Positions 2,930-28,182 of a stretch of 34,138 nucleotides of DNA are shown here, one piece after another (the first letter of the stretch is position 1; the number at the start of each line of letters is the position of its first letter). The stretch comes from Geodermatophilaceae bacterium (GTDB lineage Bacteria; Actinomycetota; Actinomycetes; Mycobacteriales; Geodermatophilaceae). Position numbers and translations under genes: made by a program. The stretch spans positions 1 through 34,138 of the forward strand of contig JACCQS010000380.1 in assembly GCA_013814015.1 (NCBI GenBank). The letters are read 5' to 3'. Under the pieces are notes generated by a model. The model saw only the letters and a list, made by a program, of their open reading frames with translations. It had not been told where the DNA came from and ran no database searches.

Positions 2930-2981
2930 TGCCCGAGGCTAGCGAGGGAGAAATTCGACCCGGTGGCGGTCCCCAGCAAGG

Positions 2982-3680: not shown

Positions 3681-3798
3681 CTTCGCCGCCTCCTGCCCGA
3701 TGAAGAGCAGATGCCGGGGGGAAACCACGCAGGCACCCTACCGAGGCGGCGAGGTGTGGCCCGCCGGCTCTCGGACGAGCAGCCTTACGGTCAACGCC

Positions 3799-4590: not shown

Positions 4591-4619
4591 TCCGAGCCGG
4601 CCGCTGCCGATGCACCAGG

Positions 4620-5609
4620 TCAACCGAGCGGCTCTGCGCGTCTCTTCAGGGGCTCCCACCAGTCGCGATTGTTCCGATACCAGGCCACCGTGTCGGCCAA
4701 ACCCTCGTCCAGCGTCACTGCCGGTTCAAAGCCGAGCTCGGTGCCGATCTTGGAAATGTCAAGGGAGTACCGGCGGTCGTGGCCCTTGCGGTCATCGACC
4801 GGCACTACCGACTTCCACGTGGCTCCGCAGGCGGCGAGCAGTTTCTCGGTCAGCTCCCGGTTAGTGAGCTCGGTACCGCCGCCGATGTGATAGACCTCGC
4901 CGGCCCGGCCCGCCCGCAGCGCGAGGGCGATGCCCGCGCAGTGATCATCCACGTGCAGCCAGTCACGGACGTTGAGTCCGTCGCCGTACAGCGGAACGGT
5001 CCCTCCGTCCAGGAGGTTCGTCACGAACAACGGGATGACCTTCTCCGGGAACTGGTAGGGCCCATAGTTGTTCGAGCACCGGGTCACCACCACGTCGAAG
5101 CCGTGGGTGCGGAAGGAGGCCAGGGCCATCAGGTCACTCGACGCCTTGGATGCGGCATAGGGCGAGCGGGGTGCCAACGGCTGGTCCTCGGCCCACGAGC
5201 CTTTTTCGATGGAGCCGTACACCTCGTCGGTGGACACGTGCAGGAAGCGGGCGACACCATGGCGACCAGCGGCTTCAAGGAGAACCTGAGTACCCAGGAC
5301 ATTGGTGCTCACGAATGCTGTGGCACCGAGGATCGAGCGGTCGACGTGAGACTCCGCGGCGAAGTGGACCACCGCGTCGTGACCTGGCATCACGTCATCG
5401 ACGAGGGCTCTGTCGGTGATGTCGGCTTCGATAAAGCTCAGCCGGGGGTCAGCCTCGACGGGACGGAGATTGTCTCGATTTCCTGAGTATGTGAGCGCAT
5501 CCAGCACAGTCACATTCGCAAGCTCGAGACCGGCGTAGCTACCGCTCAGGGCGCTGCGGACGAAATGAGAACCGATGAACCCGGCACCGCCGGTGATGAG
5601 GACTCGCAC
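4620..5609 (-). CDS. rmlB: dTDP-glucose 4,6-dehydratase
   Basis: [16 protein letters not shown] Rossmann start, [11 protein letters not shown] (YxxxK), [17 protein letters not shown] at 5609 preferred over TTG at 5627. Confidence 0.94.
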
Positions 5610-5650
5610 GGGCTGCCAGCCTAGCAAGGCAGGTCGTTAGGGTCGGGCCG

Positions 5651-6547
5651 GTGAAGGGCATCATCCTGGCCGGAGGAACCGGCTCGCGGCTGTCCCCGAT
5701 CACTCGCGCGGTGTCCAAGCAACTGATGCCCATCTACGACAAACCGATGATCTATTACCCCCTCTCGACGCTCATCCACGCCGGTATCCGAGACATCCTG
5801 GTAATCACCACACCCGAGGACAGTGCGCAGTTCCGCCAGCTGCTCGGCGACGGGTCCGAGCTCGGATTGGCGATCAGCTATGCGGTGCAGCCGCGCCCGG
5901 AGGGTCTGGCCCAAGCCTTAACTATCGGCGCCGACTTCATCGGGACCGAACCGGTGGGACTGGTCCTGGGGGACAACATCTTTCACGGTGTCGAACTCGG
6001 CGAGCAGCTCCGGGCCGAGGGCAACCTGAGCGGTGGTCTCGTGTTCGCCTACCAGGTTGCCAACCCCGCCGAGTACGGCGTCGTCGAGTTCGACGAGCAC
6101 GGGAGCGTCGTGTCGATCGAGGAAAAGCCGGCACGCCCAAAATCGCGTTATGCGGTGCCGGGGCTCTACTTCTACGACAACTCCGTCGTCGAGATCGCCC
6201 GGGGGCTGACGCCTAGCGCTCGCGGCGAGCTGGAGATCACCGCGGTCAACGAAGCGTATCTGCGGGCGGGCCGGTTACGGGTCAGCCTGCTCTCCCGTGG
6301 AACCGCGTGGTTGGACACCGGCACGTTCTCCTCCATGATGGCCGCCGCCGAGTACGTACGGGTTATCGAGGAGCGCCAAGGACTGAAGATCGGCTGCATC
6401 GAGGAAGCCGCCTGGAGGCAGGGCTTTGTCGACGATGATGCCCTGGCCGCACTTGCCGAGCCGCTGCGCAAGAGTGGGTACGGGGACTATCTGCTCGACT
6501 TGTTGACGACCGCGGCCGCACCGGTCGGGATGACCGGGTCGGACTGA
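5651..6547 (+). CDS. rmlA: Glucose-1-phosphate thymidylyltransferase
   Basis: [18 protein letters not shown]...[19 protein letters not shown]...LGDNIF...EKP; GTG start at 5651. Confidence 0.96.
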
Positions 6548-6548
6548 T

Positions 6549-7175
6549 ATGCAGGCCCGTCCACTACGGATCTCCGGTGCCGTCGAGTTCACACCACGTC
6601 AGCACGGGGACAACCGCGGTCTGTTCCTGGAGTGGTTCCGCGCCGATGAGCTCGCAGCCGCAATCGGCCATCCGTTGCATCTTGCCCAGGCCAACCTGTC
6701 GATCTCCACGCGTGGCGTCGTCCGTGGCATTCACTACGCCGCTGTCCCTCCCGGTCAGGCGAAGTACGTGACGTGCATCAGTGGGCGGGTCCTCGACGTC
6801 GTGGTGGACCTGCGGGTGGGCTCGCCGACCTTCGGGACATGGGACAGCGTCGTCCTCGACGACTCCGATCGCCGTGCGGTCTACCTTGCCGAAGGCCTCG
6901 GGCACGGCTTCTGCGCGCTCACCGACCATGTGGCGGTGACCTACCTGTGTTCGCAGCCGTACACCCCCGAGCGTGAGCATGGGGTGCACGCGTTCGATAG
7001 GGACATCGGCATCGACTGGCAGATCGCCGAGGTCACGATCTCTGACCGCGACGCAGCAGCGCCGAGTCTGGCGCAAGCACTGGCGGCCGGAACGTTGCCG
7101 GATTTCGGTGTGTGTGCCGGGTACGCCGAGGGACTGCGAGCTGACGAGCTGACCGACAGAATCACCAAGCCATGA
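6549..7175 (+). CDS. rmlC: dTDP-4-dehydrorhamnose 3,5-epimerase
   Basis: FTPRQHGDNRGLFLEWF...RGIHYA...KYVTCISGRVLDVVVDLR...GHGF cupin epimerase pattern. Start lies 1 nt after the rmlA stop. Confidence 0.92.
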   Translation: MQARPLRISGAVEFTPRQHGDNRGLFLEWFRADELAAAIGHPLHLAQANLSISTRGVVRGIHYAAVPPGQAKYVTCISGRVLDVVVDLRVGSPTFGTWDSVVLDDSDRRAVYLAEGLGHGFCALTDHVAVTYLCSQPYTPEREHGVHAFDRDIGIDWQIAEVTISDRDAAAPSLAQALAAGTLPDFGVCAGYAEGLRADELTDRITKP

Positions 7176-9132
7176 CGCGGTCGGCCAACTCCGGGTCGAT
7201 CAACTGACGGATCGCGGCGAGGAGCTGCGGTCCGACGGCGACGAGGTTGTCCGGGGAAGCGAGCAGGACGCGTTCGGTGGCCTCCGCGGCTGCTGCGACG
7301 GTGTTTTCCTCGACGACCGAGTCGGGGACAGTGGCTTGAGCGTCGAAGGTCCAGTTATCGGTCAGTCCCAGGAACCATTGGGTCATGCTGTATCCGCTGG
7401 TCCGGCTGTCCGAAGGAGCAGAGAGGTAGAAGACCGGCCTTCCCGGGAACGCTGCGGAGAACCGGTCGACATCCTCGATCATGCCTGCTGCCAATGGTGG
7501 CTGCCGGATCAGTTCTTCGCTGACGTCACGCCCGAGAGCGCCCGGAGCGTTCGCGGCGATGGCGAAGGGAGGGGGGTCCGGTACCGCGAGGCCGAAGATC
7601 TGGGTCGCGGCCACCGAGAGCGCACCGACTGTCACTGCGCTCGGGAGACGTGCCACCCGCAGCCTGGGCGTGCGGCTCACCAGGGCTGCGACCCCGATCG
7701 CCAGCACCACCACCGACAGTAACTCCAGAGCCGTGAGGTACTTCCAGAAGTAGTAGGAGAGCTCTCCGGCTGTGGCCAGCTGATAGCCGCCCAGAATGCC
7801 GGCGCCCACGATGCCGGTCACCGGCAACGTTGCCAGCCAGGCACTTCGAACGTCGATGGCGCGGCGCCGGCCTTGGTCCGGGCTGGCGGTGAACTGCGGG
7901 ACGAGCAGACAGGCGGCGAGAGCGCTGAGCACAAGTACCAGTACCAAGCCGAGCGGGGGAATCGAGACGCCGCCCGGAGTGGCCAGCACAGTCAATGGAA
8001 CGTCGAGAACGATGACCACCGCCCAGCCCAGGCCGCCAATTGTCGCTGCGGCTATTGCTGCGCAGAGCCACAGCGCCCATCGGTCAGCCACCCAACGGCG
8101 CCGACGTAACGGCATCAGCGTCAACAGGAGCGCTGGCAGGGCGAGGACGAGCAACATCGCCCAGCCGTGCGCGATCCCGACCACGGCTCCCCCCAGTGCC
8201 GCGAGATGCAGCGGATTCGGTACCGCTTCGAGCGGCACCGTCAGCATCGGTACTGCGGCTGCCAATGCGGCGGCAAGCAGGAAGTTGGGAAAGCCGTCCT
8301 GCAAGGCAGCGCCACCCGGGCCGAGCAAGAAGGCGGCTGCGACCAGCGCCACCAGGGGCAGGGCAACGGTCGGGCGGCGCCGCAGGCTCGACAACGCACA
8401 CAGGCCAGCGCACACCATCACAACGGCCGTCAGCACCACCAGCCCGACAGCCTGCGTGTACGTGGTGATCTCCGCGTCTGCAGATCCCGGCGTAGGACTT
8501 CCGACCAGCTCCATCAGCCCGGCGACCGTCGCGTGGAAGCTCTGCGGGTATCCGTCGAAGTGGTAGACCTGACCGGCCGACTCCGGCGTGGGCAGTCCTT
8601 GCGCCGTGACTGCGTGGATGCGAATCGAATGAGTCATCGAATAGTGGGCTGAGTTGTCCCAGCCGGCGGTCAGCATGGCCATCGCCGATGTGCCACTCTT
8701 TGCCTGTAGCCACTTCCACAGCACACCTGCCGCTGCTAGTCCTGCGAGCAGCGGAAGGGCGTCGACCAGCCGGAGGCGCGGGAGCAGAAGCCGTGCCCTG
8801 AGCATCGGTTCACGCGCTATCACGAGCCAGCCGACGAGAGCCGCCGCGACGACCGCGACGAGCAGCGCGCTTCGTCCTGTCCCGCCCGTCGGCAGGTCCC
8901 ACCAGTAGAGAACTGGAACCCAGCCGAAAAAGAGGCATCCGGCCAGCAGCAGACGCCGGGAGAGAATTCGCGAGGTAGGTACCGCGAGAACGATCAGCAC
9001 CGAGATTGCCAGCGAAAGACTACCGGGGACGACGTCGCTGGCCAGGGCCAAGATGACCACGGTGCCGACGATGATGGCGGCCACGACTGCGCGGATGGCG
9101 CGGGCGGTAACCCTCACCTCCTGGTCGAACAC
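7162..9132 (-). CDS. Large polytopic membrane protein, candidate GT-C-type glycosyltransferase (paralog of 9168..11216)
   Basis: 656-aa ORF, many hydrophobic segments by eye, soluble C-terminal ~130 aa. Shares the collinear motif W-D-x3-H ... Y-P-(Q/N)-S-F-H with the neighbouring protein at nearly the same residue numbers (WDNSAH 158-163, YPQSFH 195-200). GTG start. Confidence 0.8.
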   Translation of the reverse strand: MFDQEVRVTARAIRAVVAAIIVGTVVILALASDVVPGSLSLAISVLIVLAVPTSRILSRRLLLAGCLFFGWVPVLYWWDLPTGGTGRSALLVAVVAAALVGWLVIAREPMLRARLLLPRLRLVDALPLLAGLAAAGVLWKWLQAKSGTSAMAMLTAGWDNSAHYSMTHSIRIHAVTAQGLPTPESAGQVYHFDGYPQSFHATVAGLMELVGSPTPGSADAEITTYTQAVGLVVLTAVVMVCAGLCALSSLRRRPTVALPLVALVAAAFLLGPGGAALQDGFPNFLLAAALAAAVPMLTVPLEAVPNPLHLAALGGAVVGIAHGWAMLLVLALPALLLTLMPLRRRRWVADRWALWLCAAIAAATIGGLGWAVVIVLDVPLTVLATPGGVSIPPLGLVLVLVLSALAACLLVPQFTASPDQGRRRAIDVRSAWLATLPVTGIVGAGILGGYQLATAGELSYYFWKYLTALELLSVVVLAIGVAALVSRTPRLRVARLPSAVTVGALSVAATQIFGLAVPDPPPFAIAANAPGALGRDVSEELIRQPPLAAGMIEDVDRFSAAFPGRPVFYLSAPSDSRTSGYSMTQWFLGLTDNWTFDAQATVPDSVVEENTVAAAAEATERVLLASPDNLVAVGPQLLAAIRQLIDPELADRVMAW

Positions 9133-9170
9133 CGAGCCAGTGTCTCACTCAACTCCAACTAGGCTCGGTG
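9130..9170. repeat. Perfect 9-bp inverted repeat embedding both divergent GTG start codons
   Basis: CACCGAGCC (9130-9138) and GGCTCGGTG (9162-9170) flank a 23-nt spacer AGTGTCTCACTCAACTCCAACTA (10/23 GC). Each arm ends in the annotated GTG start of one of the two paralogous membrane-protein genes. Confidence 0.75.
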
Positions 9171-11216
9171 CGTGACCGGCTCACGAATGCGAACCAGCCC
9201 GGGAACCGGCGGGTGACCTTCGATCCGTCCGATCTCGGTCTGCTGTTGGCGCACATAGCCGTGCTCTGGGTGCCCGGTCTGGCCCTTGCCCTGGCAGTGG
9301 GAATGCGGCCGTGGATCGCAGCCGCCTCGGCGCCTCTGCTCACGTATGGCATCGCGACGGTGGCCGGTCCGTTCACCGCCACAGTGGGCTTGCGCTGGGG
9401 GCCGACAACGCTGATCCTTGCCGCCGTTCTCGCGTCAGTTCTCGCTGTGACCTTCCAGTTTCTACCTCGGCGACTACGGCGTCTGAGCGGCGTGGACGAC
9501 CCGACGATCGCGCCGGGAGCGCCCGGCTTGGGCAGCGATCTCGCTATGGCTGCCGGAGTCCTCGTCGGCGGCGTCGTCTCCGTTGCCGCCAGCTTGGCCG
9601 GAATGGGTTCTTTCGCCACCATCAACCAGGACTGGGACGCGGTCTTCCATGCGAACACCGTGCGGTTCATCCTCGACACCGGCGATGCAGACCCCACCGC
9701 GCTTGCCGCGATCAACGACTTCGAGCTTGGATCCTTTTTCTACCCCAACAGCTTTCATTCGGTCGCCGCGGTCACCGGCGAACTGACCGGAGCCGGCATC
9801 TTCCAGCTTCTCAATGTGCCGATCGCCCTGCTCGGGGGTATCGCTGGCCTTGGCCTCGCGGTACTCATGCGTACCTTCGGCGCGAGAGTCGCAGCTGCGG
9901 CAGCCGTACCCGTGCTGCTCGCCGCCTTCGCCAGCTTCCCCTACGACGTGTCCTGGCGGGGCCCGCTGATCCCGTTCGCGATGGGGGTTGCTCTGCTGCC
10001 GGCCTTTGCCGTGCTCACGGAGACGACGCTGGCCACGCGACGACCGGCCAGCTTTCTCCTCACCGGACTGGCGGCCTGCGGACTGTTCGGCCTGCACCCC
10101 AGCGTCGCAGTGGTCGGGGCGATGTTCGTCGTGGCATTGCTCGCCGCACGCTGGTGGGGACATCGACAGCGCTTTCGCAGTGATCTGATCTGCGGTGGCA
10201 TCCTGGCACTCCTCACGGTGGTTCTGGGAATCCAGCAGATTCTCGGTGCCCTGGGCACGCGGGTGATCGATGTCCAGGACTGGCCAGCCGTGACAACACC
10301 CGGCCGCGCCTTCGGCGACCTACTTCTCCTGAATCACGATTCGATCTTCCCGCAGTACTGGCTCGTCGTGCTGATGCTGATCGGTGCCCTTGGGATCGGC
10401 AGGATACGAGCGCTGTGGTGGTGGCTGGCGGTGACCGCCGCCTTCGTCGGCTTGTTCGTGCTCGCCGCCGCCTATGAGGGCCCATGGGTCGCCAAGCTCA
10501 CCGGCCTGTGGTGGAACGATCGCTACCGGCTGGCGGCGATCGCGGTACTCGGCTTCGCCGTCCTGGCCGCCAATGGCGTCGTCGTGGCCGCCGACAGGGT
10601 AGTCGCGTTGCTGGGCAAGAGTTCGAGGGTGGCACGGCTGCCCCGGCGCAGCGCTGTTGCCGCAGCCAGCGCCGTCATCCTGGTGATGTTCGGAACGTTG
10701 AGCTCTGGGTTCTACCTTCCGCCGAATGTGGCCAGGATGAGTTCTGCGTATCAGGACGGCCTGCCCTACGCCGTTGGCGTCAACGTGACCACTACCGACC
10801 GGGAGGCGATGGAGGAACTGGCCAGGATGGTCGAACCGGGACAGCGCGTGATGAACGATCCCAACGACGGGTCCGCTTTGATGTATGCCCTCGTCGGTGT
10901 TCAACCGATGTTCGGCCACATCACGCCCAACCCACTCGAGAAGGGCCCGGACCGGGCGGCGCTGGTGCTCTCGTTCAATTGCCTGGACAGTGATCCCGAC
11001 GTTCGTGCCCTGGTCGAGGAATACGACATCGGGTACGTGTTCCAAGGCGGCACCCTGCTGCGGCCGGGAATGGAACGGTTTCCGGGGCTGCTGGGCCTTG
11101 ATCAGGTCGACTCCCTTGAACGGGTCTGGTCCGACGAGACGGATATGTTGGGCATCTATCGCATCGCTCTGCAACCGCTCGCGGCGCCCTCGACGCCGTG
11201 CGCAGCGCAAGCCTGA
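9168..11216 (+). CDS. Large polytopic membrane protein, candidate GT-C-type glycosyltransferase (DUF6541-like suspected)
   Basis: 682-aa ORF, many hydrophobic segments, C-terminal ~180-aa soluble domain. Motifs DWDAVFH (155-161) and YPNSFH (192-197) are collinear with the divergent neighbour. GTG start; the true start could be further downstream. Confidence 0.8.
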   Translation: MRDRLTNANQPGNRRVTFDPSDLGLLLAHIAVLWVPGLALALAVGMRPWIAAASAPLLTYGIATVAGPFTATVGLRWGPTTLILAAVLASVLAVTFQFLPRRLRRLSGVDDPTIAPGAPGLGSDLAMAAGVLVGGVVSVAASLAGMGSFATINQDWDAVFHANTVRFILDTGDADPTALAAINDFELGSFFYPNSFHSVAAVTGELTGAGIFQLLNVPIALLGGIAGLGLAVLMRTFGARVAAAAAVPVLLAAFASFPYDVSWRGPLIPFAMGVALLPAFAVLTETTLATRRPASFLLTGLAACGLFGLHPSVAVVGAMFVVALLAARWWGHRQRFRSDLICGGILALLTVVLGIQQILGALGTRVIDVQDWPAVTTPGRAFGDLLLLNHDSIFPQYWLVVLMLIGALGIGRIRALWWWLAVTAAFVGLFVLAAAYEGPWVAKLTGLWWNDRYRLAAIAVLGFAVLAANGVVVAADRVVALLGKSSRVARLPRRSAVAAASAVILVMFGTLSSGFYLPPNVARMSSAYQDGLPYAVGVNVTTTDREAMEELARMVEPGQRVMNDPNDGSALMYALVGVQPMFGHITPNPLEKGPDRAALVLSFNCLDSDPDVRALVEEYDIGYVFQGGTLLRPGMERFPGLLGLDQVDSLERVWSDETDMLGIYRIALQPLAAPSTPCAAQA

Positions 11217-11233: not shown

Positions 11234-12139
11234 TCAGGCGTAGACGGAAGCCGCCAGTGTTGCCAGCCAAACAAGGGCCAGGACCTGGAGTACGTGATCG
11301 CGAAGCGCAATGTCTTCTGGCTCTCCGGCATCACCACCGTCCACATCGACGGCGTAGCGCAGCACCGCGATGACGAAGGGAACGATCGAAATCACCGACC
11401 AGGGGGAGTCGTTGAGTTCCCGAATCTCGAAGGACCACAAGCTATAGGCGGTGACGACGCCGGCTGCGGCCAGAGTCCAGACGAACCGCAGGTAGCTGGG
11501 CGTGTAGCTGTCGAGGATGCGTCTGGTGATGACGCCCGTTTTCTCGGAGAGCCGGATCTCGGCGTATCGCTTGCCGGCGACCATGAACAGCGACCCGAAG
11601 CCGGCACACATGAGAAACCATTGCGAGAGCGGGATCTGGGCAGCGGCGCCGCCGGCTACGGCGCGCAGCAGGAAGCCCGAGGCAACGATGCACAGGTCGA
11701 GAACCGGCTGGTGCTTGAGTCCGAAGCAGTAGGCGAGTTGAACCACCTCGTAGACGGCGACGACCACCAGCAATTCCACGGTGGCCATCAGGCTGACACC
11801 GAGCGCGGCCAACAGCAGCACCACGGCGAGGCTGACGGCCAGCGGGGCGGGTACCACTCCGGCGGCGATCGGCCGGTTGCGTTTGATCGGATGGGTGCGG
11901 TCGGCCTCGATGTCGCGCAGGTCGTTGATCAGGTAGATGCCCGAGGCAGCCAAACAGAAGGCGAGGAATGCAACGGCGATGTTGACCAGGACGCCGCGTT
12001 CGAGAAGGACCCCTCCCGCGATCGGCGCGGCGCTGACAAGGACGTTCTTGAGCCATTGCCGCGGACGGACTGCGCCCACGATTCCAGGAAACAGACGTTG
12101 GCTCTTTCCCGCCGTCTCGGTGGGTGCTTCCACACTCAT
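11234..12139 (-). CDS. ubiA: Decaprenyl-phosphate phosphoribosyltransferase (UbiA family, M. tuberculosis Rv3806c type)
   Basis: 301 aa. RPRQWLKNVLVSAAPIAGG N-terminus and UbiA motif YLINDLRDIEADRTHPIKRNRPIAAG. Its ATG overlaps the PAP2 stop as ATGA (12136-12139). Confidence 0.88.
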   Translation of the reverse strand: MSVEAPTETAGKSQRLFPGIVGAVRPRQWLKNVLVSAAPIAGGVLLERGVLVNIAVAFLAFCLAASGIYLINDLRDIEADRTHPIKRNRPIAAGVVPAPLAVSLAVVLLLAALGVSLMATVELLVVVAVYEVVQLAYCFGLKHQPVLDLCIVASGFLLRAVAGGAAAQIPLSQWFLMCAGFGSLFMVAGKRYAEIRLSEKTGVITRRILDSYTPSYLRFVWTLAAAGVVTAYSLWSFEIRELNDSPWSVISIVPFVIAVLRYAVDVDGGDAGEPEDIALRDHVLQVLALVWLATLAASVYA

Positions 12140-12723
12140 CCGATTACGGTCTCACGCCGCTGAACTCGGTGCCATTTCGCGACCGTCAAGCCGAGCGCGG
12201 CAGCAGCGGCAACGTCGGTCGGGAAGTGCACCCCGAGGACCATCCGGGAGATACCCATGGAGACAGCCACCGCGGGCAAGATCACTGACGCCGCCCCGGG
12301 GCGCAGGAGTCGACCGTAGGAGACCGCAGCCGCTGTCGTTGACGTCACATGCGCTGATGGAAAGCTCAGCCGGCTCGGCGTCTTGACCAGAACTCGCACG
12401 CGCAGGTCTTGCGGGCGCGGACGACGGACGATGCGCTTCACGATCACCGCTGCTGCATGTGCGAGGAAAACCGACCCGGTAGCGGTGGCCCACTCGCGCC
12501 GCTGCGGTGCCTTACAGCGGATGGTGGCCACAGCACCGATGAGCAGCCACCCCGCCGCATGCTCGCCGAAGTGGGACAGCGCCCGGGCGCTGGCGACCAC
12601 CGTGTCGCGGCCCAGACTCCGCTGCACAACCAGCAGCGCTCGAGTGTCCTCCCGTCGCAGCGCCAGCCGCAGCGTGTTCGGGGGTGGTGCCGCCATCTCT
12701 TCGGTGGCGCGTCTGGTCGTCAA
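12136..12723 (-). CDS. PAP2-family phosphatase (decaprenylphosphoryl-5-phosphoribose phosphatase type, Rv3807c-like)
   Basis: Acid-phosphatase tripartite motif: KRIVRRPRP, SFPSAHV, SRMVLGVHFPTD. The TTG at 12723 overlaps the emb stop (TTGA); an alternative ATG lies at 12696. Confidence 0.82.
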   Translation of the reverse strand: MTTRRATEEMAAPPPNTLRLALRREDTRALLVVQRSLGRDTVVASARALSHFGEHAAGWLLIGAVATIRCKAPQRREWATATGSVFLAHAAAVIVKRIVRRPRPQDLRVRVLVKTPSRLSFPSAHVTSTTAAAVSYGRLLRPGAASVILPAVAVSMGISRMVLGVHFPTDVAAAAALGLTVAKWHRVQRRETVIG

Positions 12724-15700
12724 CTCGAGGCACCTGCCGGCGCTTGCCAGCCCATAATGGTCACTTCGCGGTCGGAAAGGTCGTAGGCGGCGGTGGGATA
12801 GGGGTTATCGAATCTGTACACCTGCAGCGTTGCGATCTCTGGGAAGTTCCGCAGCTGCGCGGGTAGCAGAACCGCCGAGGCCACACGCGTCACGGGACCG
12901 AAAAGTCCACCGGCGTAGATCGTCCAGGTGTTGTCGCTGAAGCCGTTCGTTCCTTCGGTGCCATAGAGCACGCCGTATTCGATCGGCTCGGTAACACCGT
13001 TCTGGACAACGGGCTGGCGTTGACAAGGAAACACGAACGAAAAGATCCACGAGACCCCGACGGCTGCATCTGCGGGGAGATAGTCCTGCAGGGAGATCAC
13101 GCGCTGGACCGACGGCGCCGTGAAGGCCAACCACCCTCCCGAATCCGCAGTCGCGTCTGTGGCCACCAGTCGAAGCACGATTGCCGCGGAGCCGATCTGT
13201 TCATCGATGTCCAGGGGGATGGAGCGCCAGACCGAACTGTCGATCGAGTCAGCGACCTCTTGACGGTCGAGAATGTCCAGTCGATCGTCTTCAAGACTCG
13301 CGTACTCGACGACAAGGCTGTTTCCGCCGTCCAGACGCCCACTGACAAGGATGCCAACGACCTCGTCACTTTGCAGTTCGTTCGGGATGACGAACCATGG
13401 GCTGACGTAGTCACCGGTGTCGTCTTCGCTGCCAGGTTCGGCTAGAGAGCCCCAGACTTGCGAGGCAGCGGGCGACCCCACGCCACCTGGCGGAGGAGCG
13501 GCGGCGAAAAAGCCGCCCTCTTCGACGAAGGGCGATCCGAGGTTCTCCTCATCGGCAGAAGCGGATCCACTGACTTGGGGTAGCGGCTGCGCTGTCGAGT
13601 CGGCCACAACATCGATGGCTCCGGCAGCGTCACACTCTGTGGCAAGTGGATCTTGGAGGTTGCTGGCCCACGGCGAATAGGTGTCCCACGTCCGGGCGCT
13701 GGCCACGCCGAAACTACCGACCAGATATCCGGTGGACAGCACTAGAAAGAGAACGGCCATGACGGGCGCTGTGACGAACGGCACGATTCCCCGCCACGAC
13801 AACTGAGAACGCCGCGCCCACCAGCCCAGAATGGTCAGCACCACCGCATAGCCCACCAGCCATGCTGGAATGCTGGCCAACTCCAGCGGACCCATCGCTG
13901 GAGGGACTCCCGCATCGGACATACCAAGTAGCCACGAGTAAGGCCAGGAGTTCGGGCCGCGAAAGGACAAGGCGAACACGACGATGGCGGTGAACGCCAA
14001 GGTCAACGAGATTGATCGCGCAACGCGCCGGCCTTGCTTGAGTTGAGCCGCGATGGCTGGGGCAGAGAGCAGAAAGAGCGTCAGAAATGCCGGTCCCAGA
14101 GCGGCGAGGCTGCCGAAGTGGTGGGTCCACTTGCTGGGGGTGATCCAGAACAGGACAAGTGCAAGAGCCAAGCTCGACCCAACGAGTTGCAGAACGGGGC
14201 TGAACTGGATACGCCGACCGCGGCTGACCGCGAAGAGCACAGCGAACCACACGAGGCAGGCTATTCCCAGTAGTACTGGGGCGCGCTTGGCGTAATTACC
14301 TTGCGGATCCGCCAGGAGCAGAAGGGCGTATCGGAAGTACTCTTGGTACCACTGTGTCTGTTCGAAGCGACTTAAGAAGATGTCCTGACCATGAAGAAAG
14401 TCGTGCAGGGATCCGTCACCGAATGCGACGGCGCTGGCCAGTCCTGCTGGAGCGAGGACTCCGATGATATTTCGGGTGGTCATTCCACGGGTTCGAGCCC
14501 GGATGATCGGCCACAAAAATGGCAGTCCTGCGATCAGTGGGGCAAGGGCGATGAAACCCGTGGGGTGACAGACGATGGACAATGCGGCGAATGCGCTGGC
14601 GAGCCCCAATGGAAAGAGGCGTTTCCTTCGCATGGATGAATATACCAGAATCAAGACTGCCGCTGACAACAGCGCGACGATCCCTTCCGGTCGAACACCC
14701 ATGTCAAAGGGTAGCCACCAAGCAAGAAATGTGACACTCAGAGTCGCCGCGACGATCAAGTCGCCCCAACTACTTGTACGAATGGCCTTCGGGAGGAAAT
14801 CCGCGCTAGTGACGAATTTACGGAGAAGAGCCCACGTCAGCAAACCTGCAGCAAGCGCCGGGATTCTCAGGAGAACCTGGCTGCTACCCACGAGTGATTC
14901 CCAGTATCCGAGCGTACGGTAGAACCACGTAAATGGTGTAAAACTTTGGTTCAGCAGCTGGTAGTAATTTCCGACATAGCCCTCGAGTGAACTGTTCCTG
15001 GCCATCGCGGCGTAGTAGCCATCGTCGTCGGTCATCGGTGCTATGAACAGCCATAGAATGAGTACAGCAGGAACGATGAGTTCGATCGCTCGTCGCGCGT
15101 GGCGATGTTTCGGTATCGCTCGTCCGTCTTCGATCACCAAGTCTGCGGGTCTACCGCTCGCGCGGTCGCGCAGCGCCAGGAACAGCAGGCTAGCTGCCGC
15201 GCACACAATGAGAAGAATGGTCAGCAGCAGCTTACCTGTGGTTGGTGTCGTCGAAAACTGATCGTCAACTGTGAGTCTGACCGAAAGGTCATTCCGTTCT
15301 CCGCCTGGCATTCGAGTAAGAGACGTTGCAAGCACATCGACTTGCGGGAGGGACACCGACTGGATCAGTTCAGGTTCGCCTGCATCTTTCCCGATCGTCA
15401 ACTGGTCGGCCTGGATCGACATGTGATATTGACAGTCAGCTGATCCAAGTGCGTCGTCGATGACTTGACGACCGGACACCGAGGCTGTTATCCGATCGTC
15501 TTTCGCCCGAACCACGAGGCCTAATTCATCGAGAGAAGGTTGCCCCGGACGGATTGTGGCGACGACGATTCCATCCTGAGTGTCAGCCGCAGATCTGGCA
15601 GCCGAACAGCTGAACCGAACTTCCATGCCTAGCGGCTGCTGCGCGGTGAGTTCGAGCATGGACGACTGGGGAGCGGTGGGATCAAGTGGCCACGACACGA

Positions 15701-15863
15701 CAGGTTGGTTCATATGGACCGGTGCTAATGGGAGCAGCAGCGCGGCTGCGATCGCGATGCACCCGGCTGCCAGGGCAACGGCATCCCACTTGTGCCTCTT
15801 CTTCGAGGTTCTCATCGATGTGTCCGGGCGCTCGTCCACCTCAGGCTGAGCGGCCCGCGCCAT
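12720..15863 (-). CDS. emb: Emb-type arabinosyltransferase (GT-C)
   Basis: 1047 aa. Emb-like N-terminal periplasmic domain, central multi-TM region with the GT-C acidic motif MTDDDGYYAAMAR (DDD at 15021-15029), and a ~300-aa C-terminal extracytoplasmic domain. Sits directly upstream of the PAP2 and DPPR-synthase genes. Confidence 0.88.
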   Translation of the reverse strand: MARAAQPEVDERPDTSMRTSKKRHKWDAVALAAGCIAIAAALLLPLAPVHMNQPVVSWPLDPTAPQSSMLELTAQQPLGMEVRFSCSAARSAADTQDGIVVATIRPGQPSLDELGLVVRAKDDRITASVSGRQVIDDALGSADCQYHMSIQADQLTIGKDAGEPELIQSVSLPQVDVLATSLTRMPGGERNDLSVRLTVDDQFSTTPTTGKLLLTILLIVCAAASLLFLALRDRASGRPADLVIEDGRAIPKHRHARRAIELIVPAVLILWLFIAPMTDDDGYYAAMARNSSLEGYVGNYYQLLNQSFTPFTWFYRTLGYWESLVGSSQVLLRIPALAAGLLTWALLRKFVTSADFLPKAIRTSSWGDLIVAATLSVTFLAWWLPFDMGVRPEGIVALLSAAVLILVYSSMRRKRLFPLGLASAFAALSIVCHPTGFIALAPLIAGLPFLWPIIRARTRGMTTRNIIGVLAPAGLASAVAFGDGSLHDFLHGQDIFLSRFEQTQWYQEYFRYALLLLADPQGNYAKRAPVLLGIACLVWFAVLFAVSRGRRIQFSPVLQLVGSSLALALVLFWITPSKWTHHFGSLAALGPAFLTLFLLSAPAIAAQLKQGRRVARSISLTLAFTAIVVFALSFRGPNSWPYSWLLGMSDAGVPPAMGPLELASIPAWLVGYAVVLTILGWWARRSQLSWRGIVPFVTAPVMAVLFLVLSTGYLVGSFGVASARTWDTYSPWASNLQDPLATECDAAGAIDVVADSTAQPLPQVSGSASADEENLGSPFVEEGGFFAAAPPPGGVGSPAASQVWGSLAEPGSEDDTGDYVSPWFVIPNELQSDEVVGILVSGRLDGGNSLVVEYASLEDDRLDILDRQEVADSIDSSVWRSIPLDIDEQIGSAAIVLRLVATDATADSGGWLAFTAPSVQRVISLQDYLPADAAVGVSWIFSFVFPCQRQPVVQNGVTEPIEYGVLYGTEGTNGFSDNTWTIYAGGLFGPVTRVASAVLLPAQLRNFPEIATLQVYRFDNPYPTAAYDLSDREVTIMGWQAPAGASS

Positions 15864-24504: not shown

Positions 24505-25569
24505 ATGAGCCGCGAGGTCGCAAGCATCGCAGCGGTGTCTTCGCCGCTGCTGTCGGTGGTCGTTCTCGCCTACGGTGACGAGCCCTACCTCAGCGATGCT
24601 GTACGGGCGATTCTGGCTTCACAGGATCGCCGTGGCCACGAGCTGGACCTCGAGGTCGTGCTGGTCGACAACGGGGCGAGCCAGGAGGCCATGGCACAGG
24701 TTGCCGGACTGCCGCGGGTGCGCGTACTGACTCCGATGGAGAACACCGGTTTCGCCGGCGGCTGCAACCTCGGTGCGGCCAAGAGCAGGGGGGCCTTCCT
24801 GGCATTGGTCAACTCCGACGCATCGGTGACCGAGGACGCGTTGGTCAGGCTCCTGGAGGTCGCGGCCGAGTCGGGTGTCGGCATCGCGACGAGCAGTCTG
24901 CGACTGGCCGATGCGCCCGAGACGATCAACTCCGCCGGAAATCCCCTGCACCTGTCCGGGCTCGTCTGGGCAGGCTCGTACGGCCAGCCAGCGACTCGCC
25001 ATCGGAAACGCCAGCAGGTGGCCTGCGCCAGTGGGGCTGCACTGGCGCTGCGCCGCGGCCTGTGGGAGGAACTGGGCGGCTTCGCTCCGGAGTACTTCGC
25101 CTACCACGAGGACACCGAATTGAGCCTGCGCTGTTGGCAACGTGGACTGACGGTGGTCTATGTCCCGGATGCCGTGGTGCTGCACCACTACGAGTTCTCC
25201 CGTACCCCGACCAAGCTCTACCTGGTCGAGCGCAATCGACTCGTGCTGGTCGCCACTGCCTACAGCGGACGGCTGATACTGCTGCTCTCGCCACTGTTGG
25301 TCGTGTTCGAGATTGCGGTGGTCTGCTCCGCGATTGCTGGCGGTTGGTGGTCCCAGAAATGGGCCGGATGGCGCTGGGTGATCCGCAATCTTGGCTGGAT
25401 CCGGAGCCGACGAGCTCAGTTGCAGAGCGAACGCACAGTGAGCGACCGAGAACTCGCCGGTCTGTTCAGTGGTCGGCTCGATGCCGCAAACATCGACATA
25501 CCCAGAGTCATGTCGGTGTTGAACCCCCTGGTGGTCGGCTACTGGGCCGTCGTACGCCGCCTGCTCTGA
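24505..25569 (+). CDS. Glycosyltransferase family 2 with C-terminal membrane segments
   Basis: LLSVVVLAYGDEPYLSDAVRAIL, VVLVDNGAS, ENTGFAGGCNLGA, LVNSDA, YHEDTELSLR, then hydrophobic LILLLSPLLVVFEIAVVCSAIAGGWW. ATG at 24505 preferred; an alternative GTG lies at 24457. Confidence 0.85.
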   Translation: MSREVASIAAVSSPLLSVVVLAYGDEPYLSDAVRAILASQDRRGHELDLEVVLVDNGASQEAMAQVAGLPRVRVLTPMENTGFAGGCNLGAAKSRGAFLALVNSDASVTEDALVRLLEVAAESGVGIATSSLRLADAPETINSAGNPLHLSGLVWAGSYGQPATRHRKRQQVACASGAALALRRGLWEELGGFAPEYFAYHEDTELSLRCWQRGLTVVYVPDAVVLHHYEFSRTPTKLYLVERNRLVLVATAYSGRLILLLSPLLVVFEIAVVCSAIAGGWWSQKWAGWRWVIRNLGWIRSRRAQLQSERTVSDRELAGLFSGRLDAANIDIPRVMSVLNPLVVGYWAVVRRLL

Positions 25570-26909
25570 CCCTCCGGGATCCGAAGCCGGACGAGCATCC
25601 GGACCACACCGTGCGTGGAGAACAGCTCTATGAGTGTGATCGCGCTGCCGATGACGATCGCGTTGGCCGCGATGAGCATGCCGGTGGACTTCCCAAAGAC
25701 CAGCAAGGCCGCGAAGTGAATGACCGCCAGGCCGACAAAGGCAAAGCCGAAGCCGCGATCACGCGCAGCGATTGCGATCGTCAGGTGGACGTTGAGGATC
25801 CCCGCGCCGGTCATGATCAGCGTGATCGGAAAGATCAAGTTCCCCGCCTGCGCGTACGCAGATCCGAATATGGCGACGATGAGCCGGTCGGAGGCAAGCA
25901 GAAAGGTTGTTGCGGTCAGCAGCCCCACGCCGACGACGGTCAGCAGGGTCAGCAGGGTGGCCTTGGCGTAATCCAAGCCTCTGGTGATGCGTTCGCTCAC
26001 TTTGGGCAGCAGAACGAAGCCCAACGACACGGTCGCATAGAGAGCCACCTTGCCCAGCAACGCCGCTGAGGAGTACGTGGCTGCCACCTCAGGGGCAAGT
26101 CGGATCTTCGCCGTGACGATGTCGATGTTGGTGATGGCTGCGAACGCGAGCAGGCAGCCGATCGGAAGGCCGAGCAGGTGCGTTGGGTCGCCCGGATGGC
26201 GCGCTCTGGTCAAGCCCCGGATCGGCCGAAGAGTCCCGCGCAGTGACCACAGCACCGTCGCGGAGCCGACGAGGGTGGCCAGGATCAGTGCGAGTAACGC
26301 GCCGTGCAGTCCCAGCAGCAGCACCAGCGGGAAAAGGAAGAGCAGCCGCAGGATCCCCAGCGGACCGGCAAGTACCCATCCCACGGTGGGAAAGCCGCTG
26401 AAGCCCTGGATCGGACCGAGCAGTGCCTGCACACCGGTTGCGAGGGCAAACCAGATGGCGGCAAGGAGCCAGACCGTGGGTTGGCTGAGGCCGAAGAGGT
26501 ACGAGCTGACCGGCGTGATGGCGGCGAACAGAGCGAACAGGGCGACTTGGACGACAAGGACCCGGCAGAACAGCCAACGGATCATCGCTGTCACGTCGTT
26601 CCCGTCGCCTCGGGCACGGGACTGGGCCACGTCCCTGGCCATCGCGGCCTGCACGCCGCTGATCGGCGTGAGCACGATCAGCGCCAGCGACGTCAAAGAC
26701 GCCAGTGCTGCGAACTCGCCGGGATCGAGAGAACGAGCCGCGACGACGTAGAAGAGGAAATTGCCGAGGTGGCCGATCAGCGAGGCGATCAGCACGATCA
26801 ATCCCTCGCGCATGGCGCCCCTTGCCGAAGGTGCATTCAGCGGAGAAGGTGCGGCGAGCGCGGAAGCATTCCCGCCTTCCCGGGACGGGCCCTGCTCCTG
26901 ACTGCTCAT
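25539..26909 (-). CDS. MOP-superfamily polysaccharide flippase (Wzx / polysaccharide biosynthesis protein type)
   Basis: 456 aa, roughly 12-14 hydrophobic segments by eye, N-terminus ...LIVLIASLIGHLGNFLFYVVAARSL typical of this family. Its ATG overlaps the DUF2304 stop (ATGA at 26906-26909). Confidence 0.8.
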   Translation of the reverse strand: MSSQEQGPSREGGNASALAAPSPLNAPSARGAMREGLIVLIASLIGHLGNFLFYVVAARSLDPGEFAALASLTSLALIVLTPISGVQAAMARDVAQSRARGDGNDVTAMIRWLFCRVLVVQVALFALFAAITPVSSYLFGLSQPTVWLLAAIWFALATGVQALLGPIQGFSGFPTVGWVLAGPLGILRLLFLFPLVLLLGLHGALLALILATLVGSATVLWSLRGTLRPIRGLTRARHPGDPTHLLGLPIGCLLAFAAITNIDIVTAKIRLAPEVAATYSSAALLGKVALYATVSLGFVLLPKVSERITRGLDYAKATLLTLLTVVGVGLLTATTFLLASDRLIVAIFGSAYAQAGNLIFPITLIMTGAGILNVHLTIAIAARDRGFGFAFVGLAVIHFAALLVFGKSTGMLIAANAIVIGSAITLIELFSTHGVVRMLVRLRIPEGQSRRRTTAQ

Positions 26910-27310
26910 TGCTCGCGGTCACCGAGTTGCGAGCTCGGATTGTCGGCGGCAGCTTCCTTGATCTGGCGGTTGCCCACTTCCAGCTCTTCCACTCTGCTGC
27001 GCAACAGCGCCAGCTCCTCGGCCAGGGACCGCGTTTCGTCCTCCAGCCGGGACAGTTCCCAGGACAGGTGTACCGAGACCCCGAGCAGCAAGGTCAGCGC
27101 CAAGAGGAAGAGAAGGTTGGCCGGCACCTCGAAACCCAACGCCTCGGATGCCCAGTTCAGCAGGCCCGGGGCGATGAGCAAGATGAGCACGCCTAAACCG
27201 ACTATTAGCCAGAGCGCGGCGTACTTCTCCGAAAGCTGTCGTCGGCGCAAGAGTTCCAGCATGAGCCCGAGGACGACAACAGCGCCGGCGATGGCGACCA
27301 CGTAATTCAC
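26906..27310 (-). CDS. DUF2304-family small membrane protein
   Basis: VNYVVAIAGAVVVLGLMLELLRRRQLSEKYAALWLIVGLGVLIL... followed by a C-terminal coiled-coil-like tail. The GTG at 27310 overlaps the upstream GT2 stop (GTGA at 27307-27310). The longer 252-aa track ORF is an out-of-frame overlap with the GT2 gene. Confidence 0.78.
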   Translation of the reverse strand: MNYVVAIAGAVVVLGLMLELLRRRQLSEKYAALWLIVGLGVLILLIAPGLLNWASEALGFEVPANLLFLLALTLLLGVSVHLSWELSRLEDETRSLAEELALLRSRVEELEVGNRQIKEAAADNPSSQLGDREQ

Positions 27311-28095
27311 CGCACCGGCACCGGGTGGTCCGGGTCGAGCATGACCATGGTCGGCCAGCGGCGAATCCTTGCCAGAAGCAGGATCAGCGCAGCCCGAAAG
27401 AGATACACCGCGGCTCCGGTCGGCGACTTGCTGGGCTTTCCGCCTGCGCGCGGTCGCATGTGGACCGGCACCTGGGTGACGGTGAGTCCGGCCCGGATGG
27501 CGATGACCAGGGACTCGATCGTGTCGCCGAGGAACTCGGCAGGATAGTGCCGGGCGTACAGCGAGATCGCTCGGCGATTCGCCGCTCGAAACCCCGAGGT
27601 CGTGTCGGTGAGCCTGGTTCTCGCCATCCTCGTGAGCACCTTGGCCAGCAAGGTCATCGCCCAACGGCGAGGCCCCGTGACGCGATAGCCGCCCTCGTCG
27701 GCAAAGCGGGCGCCGACCACGACATCGGCCGTGCCGGTGGCATCGTCGTCGGAACCCACCGGCCGGGAGAGCTGGCCGACGAGGTCCATGATCTCGCTCG
27801 GATCGTGCTGACCGTCCGCGTCGACCTGGATCACCGCGTCGTAGTGGTGGTGCAACGCGAACTTGAACCCGGCCCGCATTGCTGCGCCGACACCGAGATT
27901 GAACGGGAGAACCAGGACCGCCGCTCCGGCCGCGCGAGCCCGGTCAACGGTGCGATCGGCGGACCCGTCGTCGACTACCAGCACGTCGGCTTGGGGAACT
28001 GCAGCCTGGATCTCGCGGATCGTGCCCGCGATGCACTCCTCCTCGTTCCACGCCGGTGTCACGACCAAGAGGCGCAACGAAGGCGGCTCGGGCAT
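27307..28095 (-). CDS. GT2 polyprenyl-phosphate glycosyltransferase (PpgS/GtrB/Dpm1-like)
   Basis: LLVVTPAWNEEECIAGTIREI, VLVVDDGSADRT, QVDADGQHDP, TSGFRA. Paired with a DUF2304 gene as in M. tuberculosis ppgS (Rv3631)-Rv3632. ATG at 28095 chosen within ORF ..28293. Confidence 0.85.
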   Translation of the reverse strand: MPEPPSLRLLVVTPAWNEEECIAGTIREIQAAVPQADVLVVDDGSADRTVDRARAAGAAVLVLPFNLGVGAAMRAGFKFALHHHYDAVIQVDADGQHDPSEIMDLVGQLSRPVGSDDDATGTADVVVGARFADEGGYRVTGPRRWAMTLLAKVLTRMARTRLTDTTSGFRAANRRAISLYARHYPAEFLGDTIESLVIAIRAGLTVTQVPVHMRPRAGGKPSKSPTGAAVYLFRAALILLLARIRRWPTMVMLDPDHPVPVR

Positions 28096-28182
28096 GGTCG
28101 TTGAGCGTAGTTGAGCCAACCGGTCATCTCGAACGGCCGTCACCCGGTCGCCAGGCTGAGCCGCCCGGTAGCTTCTCCACAC

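Follow-up and report, generated by a model that had tools for sequence, protein, structure and literature searches.

Two divergent membrane proteins in a Geodermatophilaceae wall-glycan locus are predicted GT-C glycosyltransferases: a DUF6541 (Rv3779/RptA family) member and a representative of an unnamed sister family

AftA (Rv3792, family GT85), the priming arabinofuranosyltransferase, is a candidate drug target in tuberculosis. In its published structure, the catalytic residue Asp128 sits at the start of the first helix in the first long outer loop and is stabilized by Arg132, which is likewise essential, while Arg415 on transmembrane helix 12 contacts the phosphate of the lipid donor. Besides the GT-C core, the protein has two additional helices at its N terminus and ends in an alpha/beta C-terminal domain. 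A second wall enzyme, Rv3779, transfers D-galactosamine (GalN) from polyprenyl-phospho-GalN to C-2 of 3,5-branched arabinofuranose in arabinogalactan. In Corynebacterium glutamicum, modification of arabinogalactan depends on the Rv3779 orthologue Cgp_0658, as does infection by phage Cog. RptA adds decorating rhamnose to corynebacterial arabinogalactan and has been described as "structurally very similar" to the mycobacterial GalN transferase. Here, we describe two genes that lie head to head in a stretch of 34,138 nucleotides (hereafter, the window; contig JACCQS010000380.1) from a metagenome-assembled genome (MAG; handle G000, 80% complete) of a Geodermatophilaceae bacterium. The product of the minus-strand gene is called the M-protein and that of the plus-strand gene the P-protein. 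With a probability of about 0.8, both are GT-C-fold glycosyltransferases that depend on polyprenyl-phosphate sugars and that extend or decorate an arabinan- or galactan-type wall polysaccharide at the outer face of the membrane. The two genes and their motif sites are the following (aa, amino acids).

7162..9132, minus strand: M-protein gene, 656 aa; predicted GT-C-fold polytopic glycosyltransferase of an unnamed sister family of DUF6541
9168..11216, plus strand: P-protein gene, 682 aa (667 aa if translation starts at GTG 9213); predicted GT-C glycosyltransferase of the DUF6541 / Rv3779-RptA family
9133..9167, no strand: divergent intergenic region, 35 bp between the annotated GTG starts, with a flanking 9-bp inverted repeat, CACCGAGCC / GGCTCGGTG
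8644..8664, minus strand: GWDNSAH (M-protein residues 157-163), with D159 proposed to act as catalytic base together with H163
8533..8550, minus strand: YPQSFH (M-protein residues 195-200), which directly precedes and runs into the beginning of the second juxtamembrane helix (198-210)
7741..7743, minus strand: codon of M-protein K464 (SYYFWK), on the outward-facing end of the second-to-last transmembrane helix and proposed to bind the phosphate of the donor
9630..9650, plus strand: DWDAVFH (P-protein residues 155-161), with D157 proposed to act as catalytic base together with H161
9741..9758, plus strand: YPNSFH (P-protein residues 192-197), at least 90% conserved; paired by hhalign with FYPAGW of AftA
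10527..10529, plus strand: codon of P-protein R454 (WWNDRYR), invariant, likewise on the outward-facing end of the second-to-last transmembrane helix and proposed to bind the phosphate of the donor

Sequence searches of the PDB with each protein and with each family profile returned noise only (for example, rhodopsin, designed helical proteins, and cytochrome oxidase subunit 4). AlphaFold2 models built with the family alignments had a predicted local distance difference test score of 91.4 and a predicted TM-score of 0.93 for the P-protein and 91.0 and 0.92, respectively, for the M-protein. Each model contains 13 to 14 long transmembrane helices, a long loop containing short helices that follows roughly the fourth or fifth of these, and an alpha/beta C-terminal domain of ~145 to 170 aa. 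An earlier note on this DNA had described two divergent, large, multispanning coding sequences with soluble C-terminal domains; the open reading frames are present as claimed, and the modeled helices and C-terminal domains agree with that description. When the P model was compared with the PDB using Foldseek, there were 19 matches at E ≤ 1e-3, which were GT-C proteins without exception (query-normalized TM-scores of 0.35 to 0.50). The best was AftA (PDB 8IF8; E = 1e-8, TM-score 0.48 to 0.53), followed by STT3 of the yeast and human oligosaccharyltransferases, AglB, AftD, and DPY19. In addition, the C-terminal domain of the P model separately matched the C-terminal globular domain of AglB. Results for the M model were weaker but consistent: AftA 8IF8 was again the best match (E = 1.2e-3, probability 1.0, TM-score 0.40), and DPY19, STT3, and ArnT came next (probabilities of 0.93 to 1.0, TM-scores of 0.32 to 0.40). 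These comparisons support a GT-C fold for both modeled proteins, in line with the suggestion in the earlier note that they are GT-C-like transferases. A transporter fold, which that note had named as the outcome that would count against its suggestion, was rejected, since matches to the major facilitator superfamily, SLC26, ATP-binding cassette (ABC), and pyrophosphatase proteins had probabilities of at most 0.2 and TM-scores of ~0.1, compared with probabilities of 0.9 to 1.0 for GT-C proteins.

To assign topology, we took the AlphaFold2 helices as membrane segments and counted charges per loop according to the positive-inside rule. Loops rich in Arg and Lys alternate with poor ones in the M-protein (rich loops at 106-121, 246-253, 340-350, 410-434, and 486-494) and in the P-protein (98-120, 291-292, 332-337, and 483-494). 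The loop that carries the shared motif, which is the first long one, falls on the Arg/Lys-poor, acidic side in both proteins (residues 147-210 in the P-protein, with one K/R and eight D/E; residues 143-217 in the M-protein). Under this rule, the motif loop and the C-terminal domain are predicted to be extracytoplasmic in both, which is the side expected of GT-C enzymes and which answers a question raised when the motif was first noticed.

The original observation on this pair was a shared WD-x3-H ... YP-x-SFH loop at nearly equal residue numbers in proteins that otherwise look unalike. BLASTP bears this out: the motif loop is the sole stretch that aligns (M-protein 146-212 with P-protein 144-209; 28% identity, E = 4e-4). 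We collected homologues of each protein (38 for the M-protein, 77 for the P-protein) and compared the two family profiles. Local alignment gave a probability of 96.4% (E = 1e-9), and global alignment with hhalign spanned 585 collinear columns at a probability of 98.5% (E = 2.6e-14). hhalign pairs YPQSFH of the M-protein with YPNSFH of the P-protein, and in the global alignment K464 falls on R454. Because of these profile-profile probabilities, the two proteins can be regarded as true but remote homologues, and the motif match as something other than chance.

The motif residues are also the most conserved positions in both family alignments. In a first M-family alignment, made from the 38 homologues, D159, H163, Y195, P196, and H200 are invariant. 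Across a wider set of 94 diverse representatives (25 to 42% identical to the M-protein), only P52, R60, D159, H163, Y195, W324, Y460, and K464 are invariant, with P196 and H200 conserved in at least 90%. Among 56 P-family sequences, D157, H161, and R454 are invariant, and Y192, P193, and H197 reach at least 90%. In the models, D157 and H161 lie at the N terminus of helix 156-171 of the P-protein, and D159 and H163 lie at the N terminus of juxtamembrane helix 160-173 of the M-protein.

By its sequence, the P-protein is a bona fide member of Pfam family DUF6541 (PF20176) and of the Rv3779/RptA family. It matches the DUF6541 model at E = 1e-123 (414.3 bits, against a cutoff of 29) over profile positions 2 to 644 of 646. 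The earlier note had found neither protein assignable to a named family, which holds for the M-protein but not for the P-protein. A literature search for DUF6541 found no paper that mentions it. Throughout one Mycobacterium-like genus, each genome has a single DUF6541 gene, and we looked closely at two of these genomes. In the first, the gene stands between a class V aminotransferase (Aminotran_5) gene and a group made up of an ABC ATPase, a family 2 glycosyltransferase (GT2), and a DprE1-like oxidase; in the second, it lies ~12 kb upstream of the AftA gene, which is followed by three Emb genes. These surroundings match the Rv3778c-Rv3795 gene arrangement of M. tuberculosis. Because of this synteny, the mycobacterial DUF6541 protein is identified as the Rv3779 orthologue, so that DUF6541 contains it. 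The earlier note had brought up Rv3779 for its similar size alone; the P-protein in fact shares a family with it, while the M-protein falls outside DUF6541. The syntenic mycobacterial protein carries STWDAVWH and YYPSVFH (WD-x3-H and YP-x2-FH) and aligns with the P-protein over its full length (27% identity, E = 1e-31). A published Rv3779 primer sequence was absent from the fetched loci, as expected given that these come from other species. RptA corresponds to Cg0658. The C. glutamicum control genome contains a DUF6541 match above the cutoff, and with this match and the published work, Cg0658/RptA belongs, by the literature, to DUF6541.

A maximum-likelihood tree rooted on AftA resolves the family further. 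The mycobacterial Rv3779 proteins form their own long-branched clade within DUF6541, and the P-protein is placed in a different DUF6541 clade, made up of proteins that their sources attribute to Geodermatophilaceae and Pseudonocardiaceae. Tandem or nearby DUF6541 duplicates, the tandem ones being recent, are common in these two families (L006, L007, L012, and L073; G019:C81, G006:C146, and G001:C447, where L-numbers denote fetched homologous loci and G-numbers denote genomes), and one genus carries up to four copies per genome. The family also reaches far beyond actinobacteria, with a PF20176 match above the cutoff in the archaeon Methanosarcina acetivorans.

Sequence profiles tie the P family to AftA as well. 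AftA orthologues read VDQQFR ... FYPAGW ... SFRLQP, and a two-sequence AftA profile aligned with the P-family profile at a probability of 97.1% (E = 7e-11, 408 columns), pairing FYPAGW with FYPNSFH and the arginine of SFRLQP with R454. Where AftA has D-x3-R (D128-x3-R132), the M- and P-proteins have D-x3-H. The AftA domain models PF12250 and PF12249 (AftA_N and AftA_C) match neither protein, and PF12250 has no match in the source genome. From the conserved residues, we infer roles by analogy. The invariant Asp (D157 in the P-protein, D159 in the M-protein) would act as the catalytic base and activate the hydroxyl of the acceptor; one turn further along the helix, the His (H161 or H163) would replace Arg132 of AftA and position the Asp; R454 or K464 would hold the phosphate of the lipid donor, like Arg415 of AftA; and the alpha/beta C-terminal domain would cap the site and help to bind the acceptor. 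The M- and P-proteins would belong to a lineage that also holds AftA (GT85) and Rv3779/RptA. Together, profile and fold tie DUF6541 to AftA and suggest one shared active-site plan, consisting of an Asp, a basic residue four positions on, and a basic residue on the penultimate transmembrane helix.

In contrast to the P-protein, the M-protein has no Pfam match at E ≤ 1 and no NCBIfam match. Of 10 M-family representatives searched against the DUF6541 model, 8 had no match and 2 scored 23 to 24 bits, under the cutoff of 29; the P-family hidden Markov model (HMM) that we built found a best domain of 14 bits in the M-protein. In the tree, all 39 M-type sequences form one clade with 100% support and a long stem, sister to all of DUF6541. 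Judged from these sequences, the M-protein founds an unnamed monophyletic sister family of DUF6541 with at least 336 clusters, and the paralogy that the earlier note had proposed is ancient. An exhaustive profile search recovered 885 M-family cluster representatives at E ≤ 1e-3 and 336 at E ≤ 1e-30 (clusters at 50% identity). The family was found in 0 of 40 genomes of relatives and in 0 of 300 species-representative genomes of the class, where the four best first-look candidates per genome were scored. It occurs mainly in metagenomes, almost only in uncultured actinobacteria. Nevertheless, the M-protein is predicted to keep the same active-site layout, and with it the same mechanism, as the P-protein.

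The side-by-side placement of the two genes is not conserved. We assembled 80 genomic loci that contain a P-homologue, and neighbors within 10 kb of the P- or M-homologue were counted. The sources of these P loci are Geodermatophilaceae, a large number of Pseudonocardiaceae, and Sanguibacter; cultured carriers among them include Geodermatophilus aquaeductus DSM 46834, Modestobacter sp. DSM 44400, and Blastococcus mobilis DSM 44272. Neighboring homologues in P loci were called by tblastn, with E ≤ 1e-8 and at least 40% coverage required for M-homologues. A conserved head-to-head pair was rejected, as an M-homologue was detected within 10 kb of the P-homologue, at these thresholds, in 0 of the 80 P loci. 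In the reverse direction, a DUF6541 gene lies within 10 kb of the M gene in only two (L086 and L087) of 12 fetched M loci; in L087, the two are again divergent, with one extra gene between them. The M- and P-proteins are ancient paralogues that have been brought side by side and form no conserved functional unit. A sigma-70 consensus promoter was looked for in the 35-bp intergenic region (9133..9167), and none was found. The start of the P-protein is ambiguous between GTG 9168 and GTG 9213. A database protein with 98% identity (P0039) is 667 aa long, in agreement with GTG 9213; with that start, the intergenic region widens from 35 to 80 bp.

Pfam and NCBIfam matches place the two genes within one large wall-glycan locus that fills the window. 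Up to the P gene, the order is glgE, an FkbM methyltransferase, a GT2 (GT2a, 3673-4590), rmlB, rmlA, rmlC, the M gene, and the P gene. Beyond Emb, there follow a GT4, a GtrA-like gene, an FkbM methyltransferase, SpoIID, an amidase, an FkbM-like gene, a methyltransferase, a GT2, a 456-aa protein, DUF2304, and a PpgS-like GT2. The features that bear on donor supply are the following.

4620..7175, rmlB on the minus strand, rmlA and rmlC on the plus strand: genes for making dTDP-rhamnose; rmlC and the M gene overlap by 14 bp at their 3' ends
11234..15863, minus strand: operon of UbiA decaprenylphosphoryl phosphoribose (DPPR) synthase, PAP2 phosphatase, and Emb arabinosyltransferase, convergent with the P gene
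25539..26909, minus strand: 456-aa membrane protein without an assigned family, encoded alongside the GT2-DUF2304 pair; candidate flippase for a lipid-linked sugar
26906..27664, minus strand: DUF2304 small membrane protein, an Rv3632-like GT2 partner (PF10066, E = 1e-23, residues 122-223)
27307..28293, minus strand: PpgS-like GT2 (GT2c), a candidate polyprenyl-phosphate-sugar synthase

Two donor routes are thus encoded near the P gene. UbiA matches the NCBIfam equivalog for decaprenyl-phosphate phosphoribosyltransferase (437 bits, against a cutoff of 207), PAP2 and Emb are assigned by Pfam, and the operon likely supplies a decaprenyl-phospho-pentose donor route along with the acceptor polymer. 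The second route starts with GT2c, whose best NCBIfam match is PpgS (NF058614, E = 4e-25), with AglJ and dolichyl-P-hexose transferase next; one of the two GT-C enzymes probably draws its donor from GT2c. The true start of the adjoining DUF2304 gene is probably near 27310. The 456-aa protein has no Pfam or NCBIfam match. Unannotated genes of 413 to 441 aa, likened to it by place and size, occupy the same position in GT2-DUF2304 modules of L085, L087, L102, and L103. In L085 (14686-19776) and L102 (15788-20963), the module runs GT2, DUF2304, ~420- to 440-aa protein, GT2, with a DUF2142 gene coming next. Mycobacterium has a true PpgS equivalog (405 bits, against a cutoff of 370) directly upstream of a DUF2304 gene; this is the Rv3631-Rv3632 pair, the maker of the Rv3779 donor. 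The three components of an Rv3779-type system are therefore all encoded in the window, as its PpgS-like GT2, DUF2304, and P-protein. DUF2304 (PF10066) itself reaches far beyond actinobacteria, with matches also in Lactococcus lactis and Methanocaldococcus jannaschii.

Glycan-synthesis neighbors, which the earlier note had expected in relatives, are present around both P- and M-family genes. Homologues of the window's glycan genes occur in 54 of the 80 P loci, including a PpgS-like GT2 (27/80), UbiA (27/80), Emb (13/80), and rml genes (24/80). In one locus (L005), the P-homologue adjoins a module of methyltransferase, GT2, 456-aa protein (77% identical), DUF2304, and PpgS-like GT2, all on a 10-kb contig that lacks UbiA and Emb. 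The most likely donor of the P-protein would accordingly be a polyprenyl-phosphate sugar made by the GT2c/DUF2304 pair and flipped by the linked 456-aa protein. The adjacent decaprenyl-phospho-pentose route could be the alternative source; we favor the PpgS-like route and regard the other as a serious rival.

That rival route belongs to an alternative that is possible, at well under even odds: the P-protein would be the counterpart of AftA, a pentofuranosyltransferase that depends on decaprenyl-phospho-arabinose or -ribose and primes or branches the Emb arabinan, with its donor coming from the UbiA-PAP2 operon rather than from GT2c. AftA is, after all, the best structural match of the P model and its profile aligns at 97%. 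Among 41 relatives, Emb and DUF6541 are 3 to 8 kb apart whenever both are present, and the closest relative (L004, with a 67% identical P-homologue) has the order glgE, divergent P, UbiA, PAP2, Emb; UbiA is also as frequent around P-homologues as the counts above indicate. PF12250 is absent from nine of nine genomes of the window's genus even though five of them have Emb, but these are MAGs of 73 to 90% completeness, so the absence of AftA counts for little. Set against this, the characterized DUF6541 members transfer GalN or rhamnose instead of arabinofuranose, DUF6541 genes occur without Emb in several complete genomes (G009, G019, G020, G021, and G039), and the P-homologue of L005 stands beside a PpgS-like module without UbiA or Emb.

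For the M-protein, rhamnosyl transfer is a plausible role. The ancient paralogue is linked most often to rhamnose-synthesis genes or to galactofuran/arabinan clusters, as seen in 13 M-family contexts (the window and 12 fetched loci). Rhamnose-related genes (homologues of rmlA, rmlC, rmlD, or RgpF) are next to or near the M gene in 8 of the 13: rml genes flank it directly in the window, L085, L086, L089, L102, and L103 and lie within 10 kb in L087, and an RgpF-type rhamnan gene is near it in L108. Clusters of glf, GlfT2, and Emb surround it in 4 of the 13, among them L086, L087, and L107; L087 and L107 also contain AftB, and L107 has a true AftA besides. We had considered the M-protein as a replacement for AftA, an idea weakened by L107, which holds it together with AftA, Emb, and AftB.

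A tentative proposal built on these contexts is that the M-protein is an extracytoplasmic L-rhamnosyltransferase acting on polyprenyl-phospho-rhamnose, with an RptA-like function in a different family, fed by the adjacent rmlBAC genes. The most suggestive locus is L102, where the order rmlA, 256-aa PpgS/AglJ-like GT2, M, rmlD, rmlC looks like a self-contained pathway for lipid-linked rhamnose. The small GT2 of this locus (8837-9607) has AglJ, PpgS, ArnC, and dolichyl-P-hexose transferase as its best NCBIfam matches and is, by sequence, a candidate polyprenyl-phospho-rhamnose synthase. In the window, the stretch from FkbM to M (2930-9160, 6.2 kb: FkbM methyltransferase, GT2, rmlB, rmlA, rmlC, M) is present as a unit, and it is absent between glgE and P in L004. 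The M gene therefore appears to be part of a rhamnose block rather than to go with the P gene; the block is either an insertion in the window or a deletion in L004. Other contexts fit less well. The M gene of L107 is part of a glf-GlfT2-AftA-Emb-AftB cluster and has rml genes nowhere within 10 kb, and L084, L088, and L101 lack rml neighbors, the last lacking glycan neighbors altogether. The counts above put rml genes near P-homologues too. Moreover, the M gene of the window has no adjoining PpgS-like GT2, since GT2a resembles ordinary Leloir GT2 enzymes, and our literature search turned up no identified polyprenyl-phospho-rhamnose synthase. The fuller version, in which the M-protein rhamnosylates cell-wall polysaccharides outside the cytoplasm from polyprenyl-phospho-rhamnose and the small GT2 of L102 is the candidate synthase, is a little more doubtful still.

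Two further neighbors of M-homologues deserve description. In L084 and L088, a YfdI_N gene (PF27133; 11989-13410 and 12028-13575, respectively) overlaps the M gene downstream, with no other glycan genes there, which suggests a two-gene unit. In addition, an unannotated protein of 563 to 568 aa with no Pfam match stands beside glf, GlfT2, and the M-homologue in L086 (4525-6231), L087 (8213-9904), and L107 (6191-7888). We considered these proteins as relatives of the M- and P-proteins; the L086 and L087 copies were unrelated by both family HMMs.

Several results weigh against our preferred reading of both proteins as polyprenyl-phosphate-sugar-dependent wall glycosyltransferases, or against parts of it. 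The best Foldseek E value for the M-protein is just 1.2e-3, and the AftA profile had no match to the M-family profile. For the P family, the alignment with AftA starts just after the Asp motif, and the equivalence of D157, H161, and R454 with D128, R132, and R415 of AftA comes from sequence and profile alignment together with helix position. As to donors, GT2c scores 88 bits, far under the PpgS equivalog cutoff of 370, and since the P-protein lies outside the Rv3779 clade, GalN specificity is not transferable to it. As to the acceptor, DUF6541 is found in complete genomes of the same family that have no Emb, and six fairly complete genomes among the 41 relatives show this combination, so it need not be an Emb-made arabinan. 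Homologues of DprE1 and Glf were not found by tblastn in the 80%-complete source MAG. The link between rml genes and the M family is weakened because the arabinogalactan linker unit requires rhamnose anyway, so that rml genes are expected near any arabinogalactan cluster. Finally, it is very unlikely that one or both proteins are GT-C-shaped nonglycosyltransferases (a transporter, a scaffold for polymer export or ligation, or a dead paralogue): the weak match of the M model to solved GT-C structures (TM-score ~0.40) and conflicting reports on Rv3779 activity speak for this, but transporter folds scored far below GT-C folds, the most conserved residues are those expected of a GT-C active site (an Asp and a basic residue on the penultimate transmembrane helix), and a dead copy would be expected to lose such residues, which both families have kept.

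The source MAG contains other parts of a wall-glycan pathway, including DPPR synthase, Emb, two GlfT2-like genes (contigs C405 and C180), and an RmlD candidate (C463). If the DprE1 epimerase is truly absent, the lipid donor would be decaprenyl-phospho-ribose and not decaprenyl-phospho-arabinose. The MAG also holds diverged second copies of window genes: contig C25 (7 kb) carries an amidase, SpoIID, FkbM, and GT4 at 81 to 88% aa identity and a GtrA-like gene at 58%, and contig C498 (2.5 kb) carries Emb and PAP2 at 47 to 52%. Either the MAG has genuine paralogous loci, or another strain or species was binned with it.

Neither protein reveals a new mechanism or anything mechanistically surprising. 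The novelty lies in the unnamed M family and in the DUF6541-Rv3779-AftA link, as the P-protein joins a known, partly characterized family. What had been a "domain of unknown function" is now linked to the characterized members Rv3779 and RptA. The large M family, with its rhamnose and galactofuran/arabinan clusters, is a useful lead for cell-wall glycobiology. In Geodermatophilaceae and Pseudonocardiaceae, the GT-C gene stands beside its likely donor genes, which are scattered in Mycobacterium, and this clustered system offers a comparative handle on arabinogalactan-type wall decoration outside the mycolate bacteria.

Compared with AftA, the best structural match of both models, the M- and P-proteins share the extra N-terminal helices before the GT-C core; an Asp, proposed to be catalytic, where the first juxtamembrane helix begins, with a basic residue four positions on; an F/Y-Y-P motif ~30 residues beyond the Asp motif; a conserved basic residue in the second-to-last transmembrane helix; and a periplasmic C-terminal domain of the alpha/beta type. 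They differ in having His in place of Arg132 and in their low identity to AftA in Foldseek (14 to 17%). The M family stands further apart, with a profile that does not align with that of AftA and a member that coexists with a true AftA in L107.

Compared with Rv3779 and Cg0658 (RptA), the P-protein is alike in length (the syntenic mycobacterial open reading frames have 659 and 721 aa) and has the motifs WD-x3-H, YP-x2-FH, and WWxD-R in common with the mycobacterial protein. Its locus also contains a PpgS-like GT2 and DUF2304 pair, the kind of pair that supplies the donor of Rv3779 in M. tuberculosis. In contrast, the P-protein belongs to a separate clade, so that its sugar may differ, and its donor genes are clustered with it, whereas those of Mycobacterium are at a separate locus. 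The M-protein fails the Pfam threshold completely and is a remote sister only.

The locus as a whole resembles three-component systems such as GtrA/GtrB with a type-specific GT-C enzyme or ORF15/ORF14/ORF12 of Citrobacter youngae (GT136). In these systems, a cytoplasmic synthase loads polyprenyl phosphate and the GT-C enzyme adds the sugar to a finished polymer, and the same logic of synthase, flippase, and GT-C enzyme with a C-terminal periplasmic domain would apply here. The GT-C family is a different one, GT136 being most like ArnT, and the putative flippase is the 456-aa protein instead of a MATE or GtrA protein. Furthermore, several GT-C enzymes (Emb, P, and M) are encoded in a single locus.

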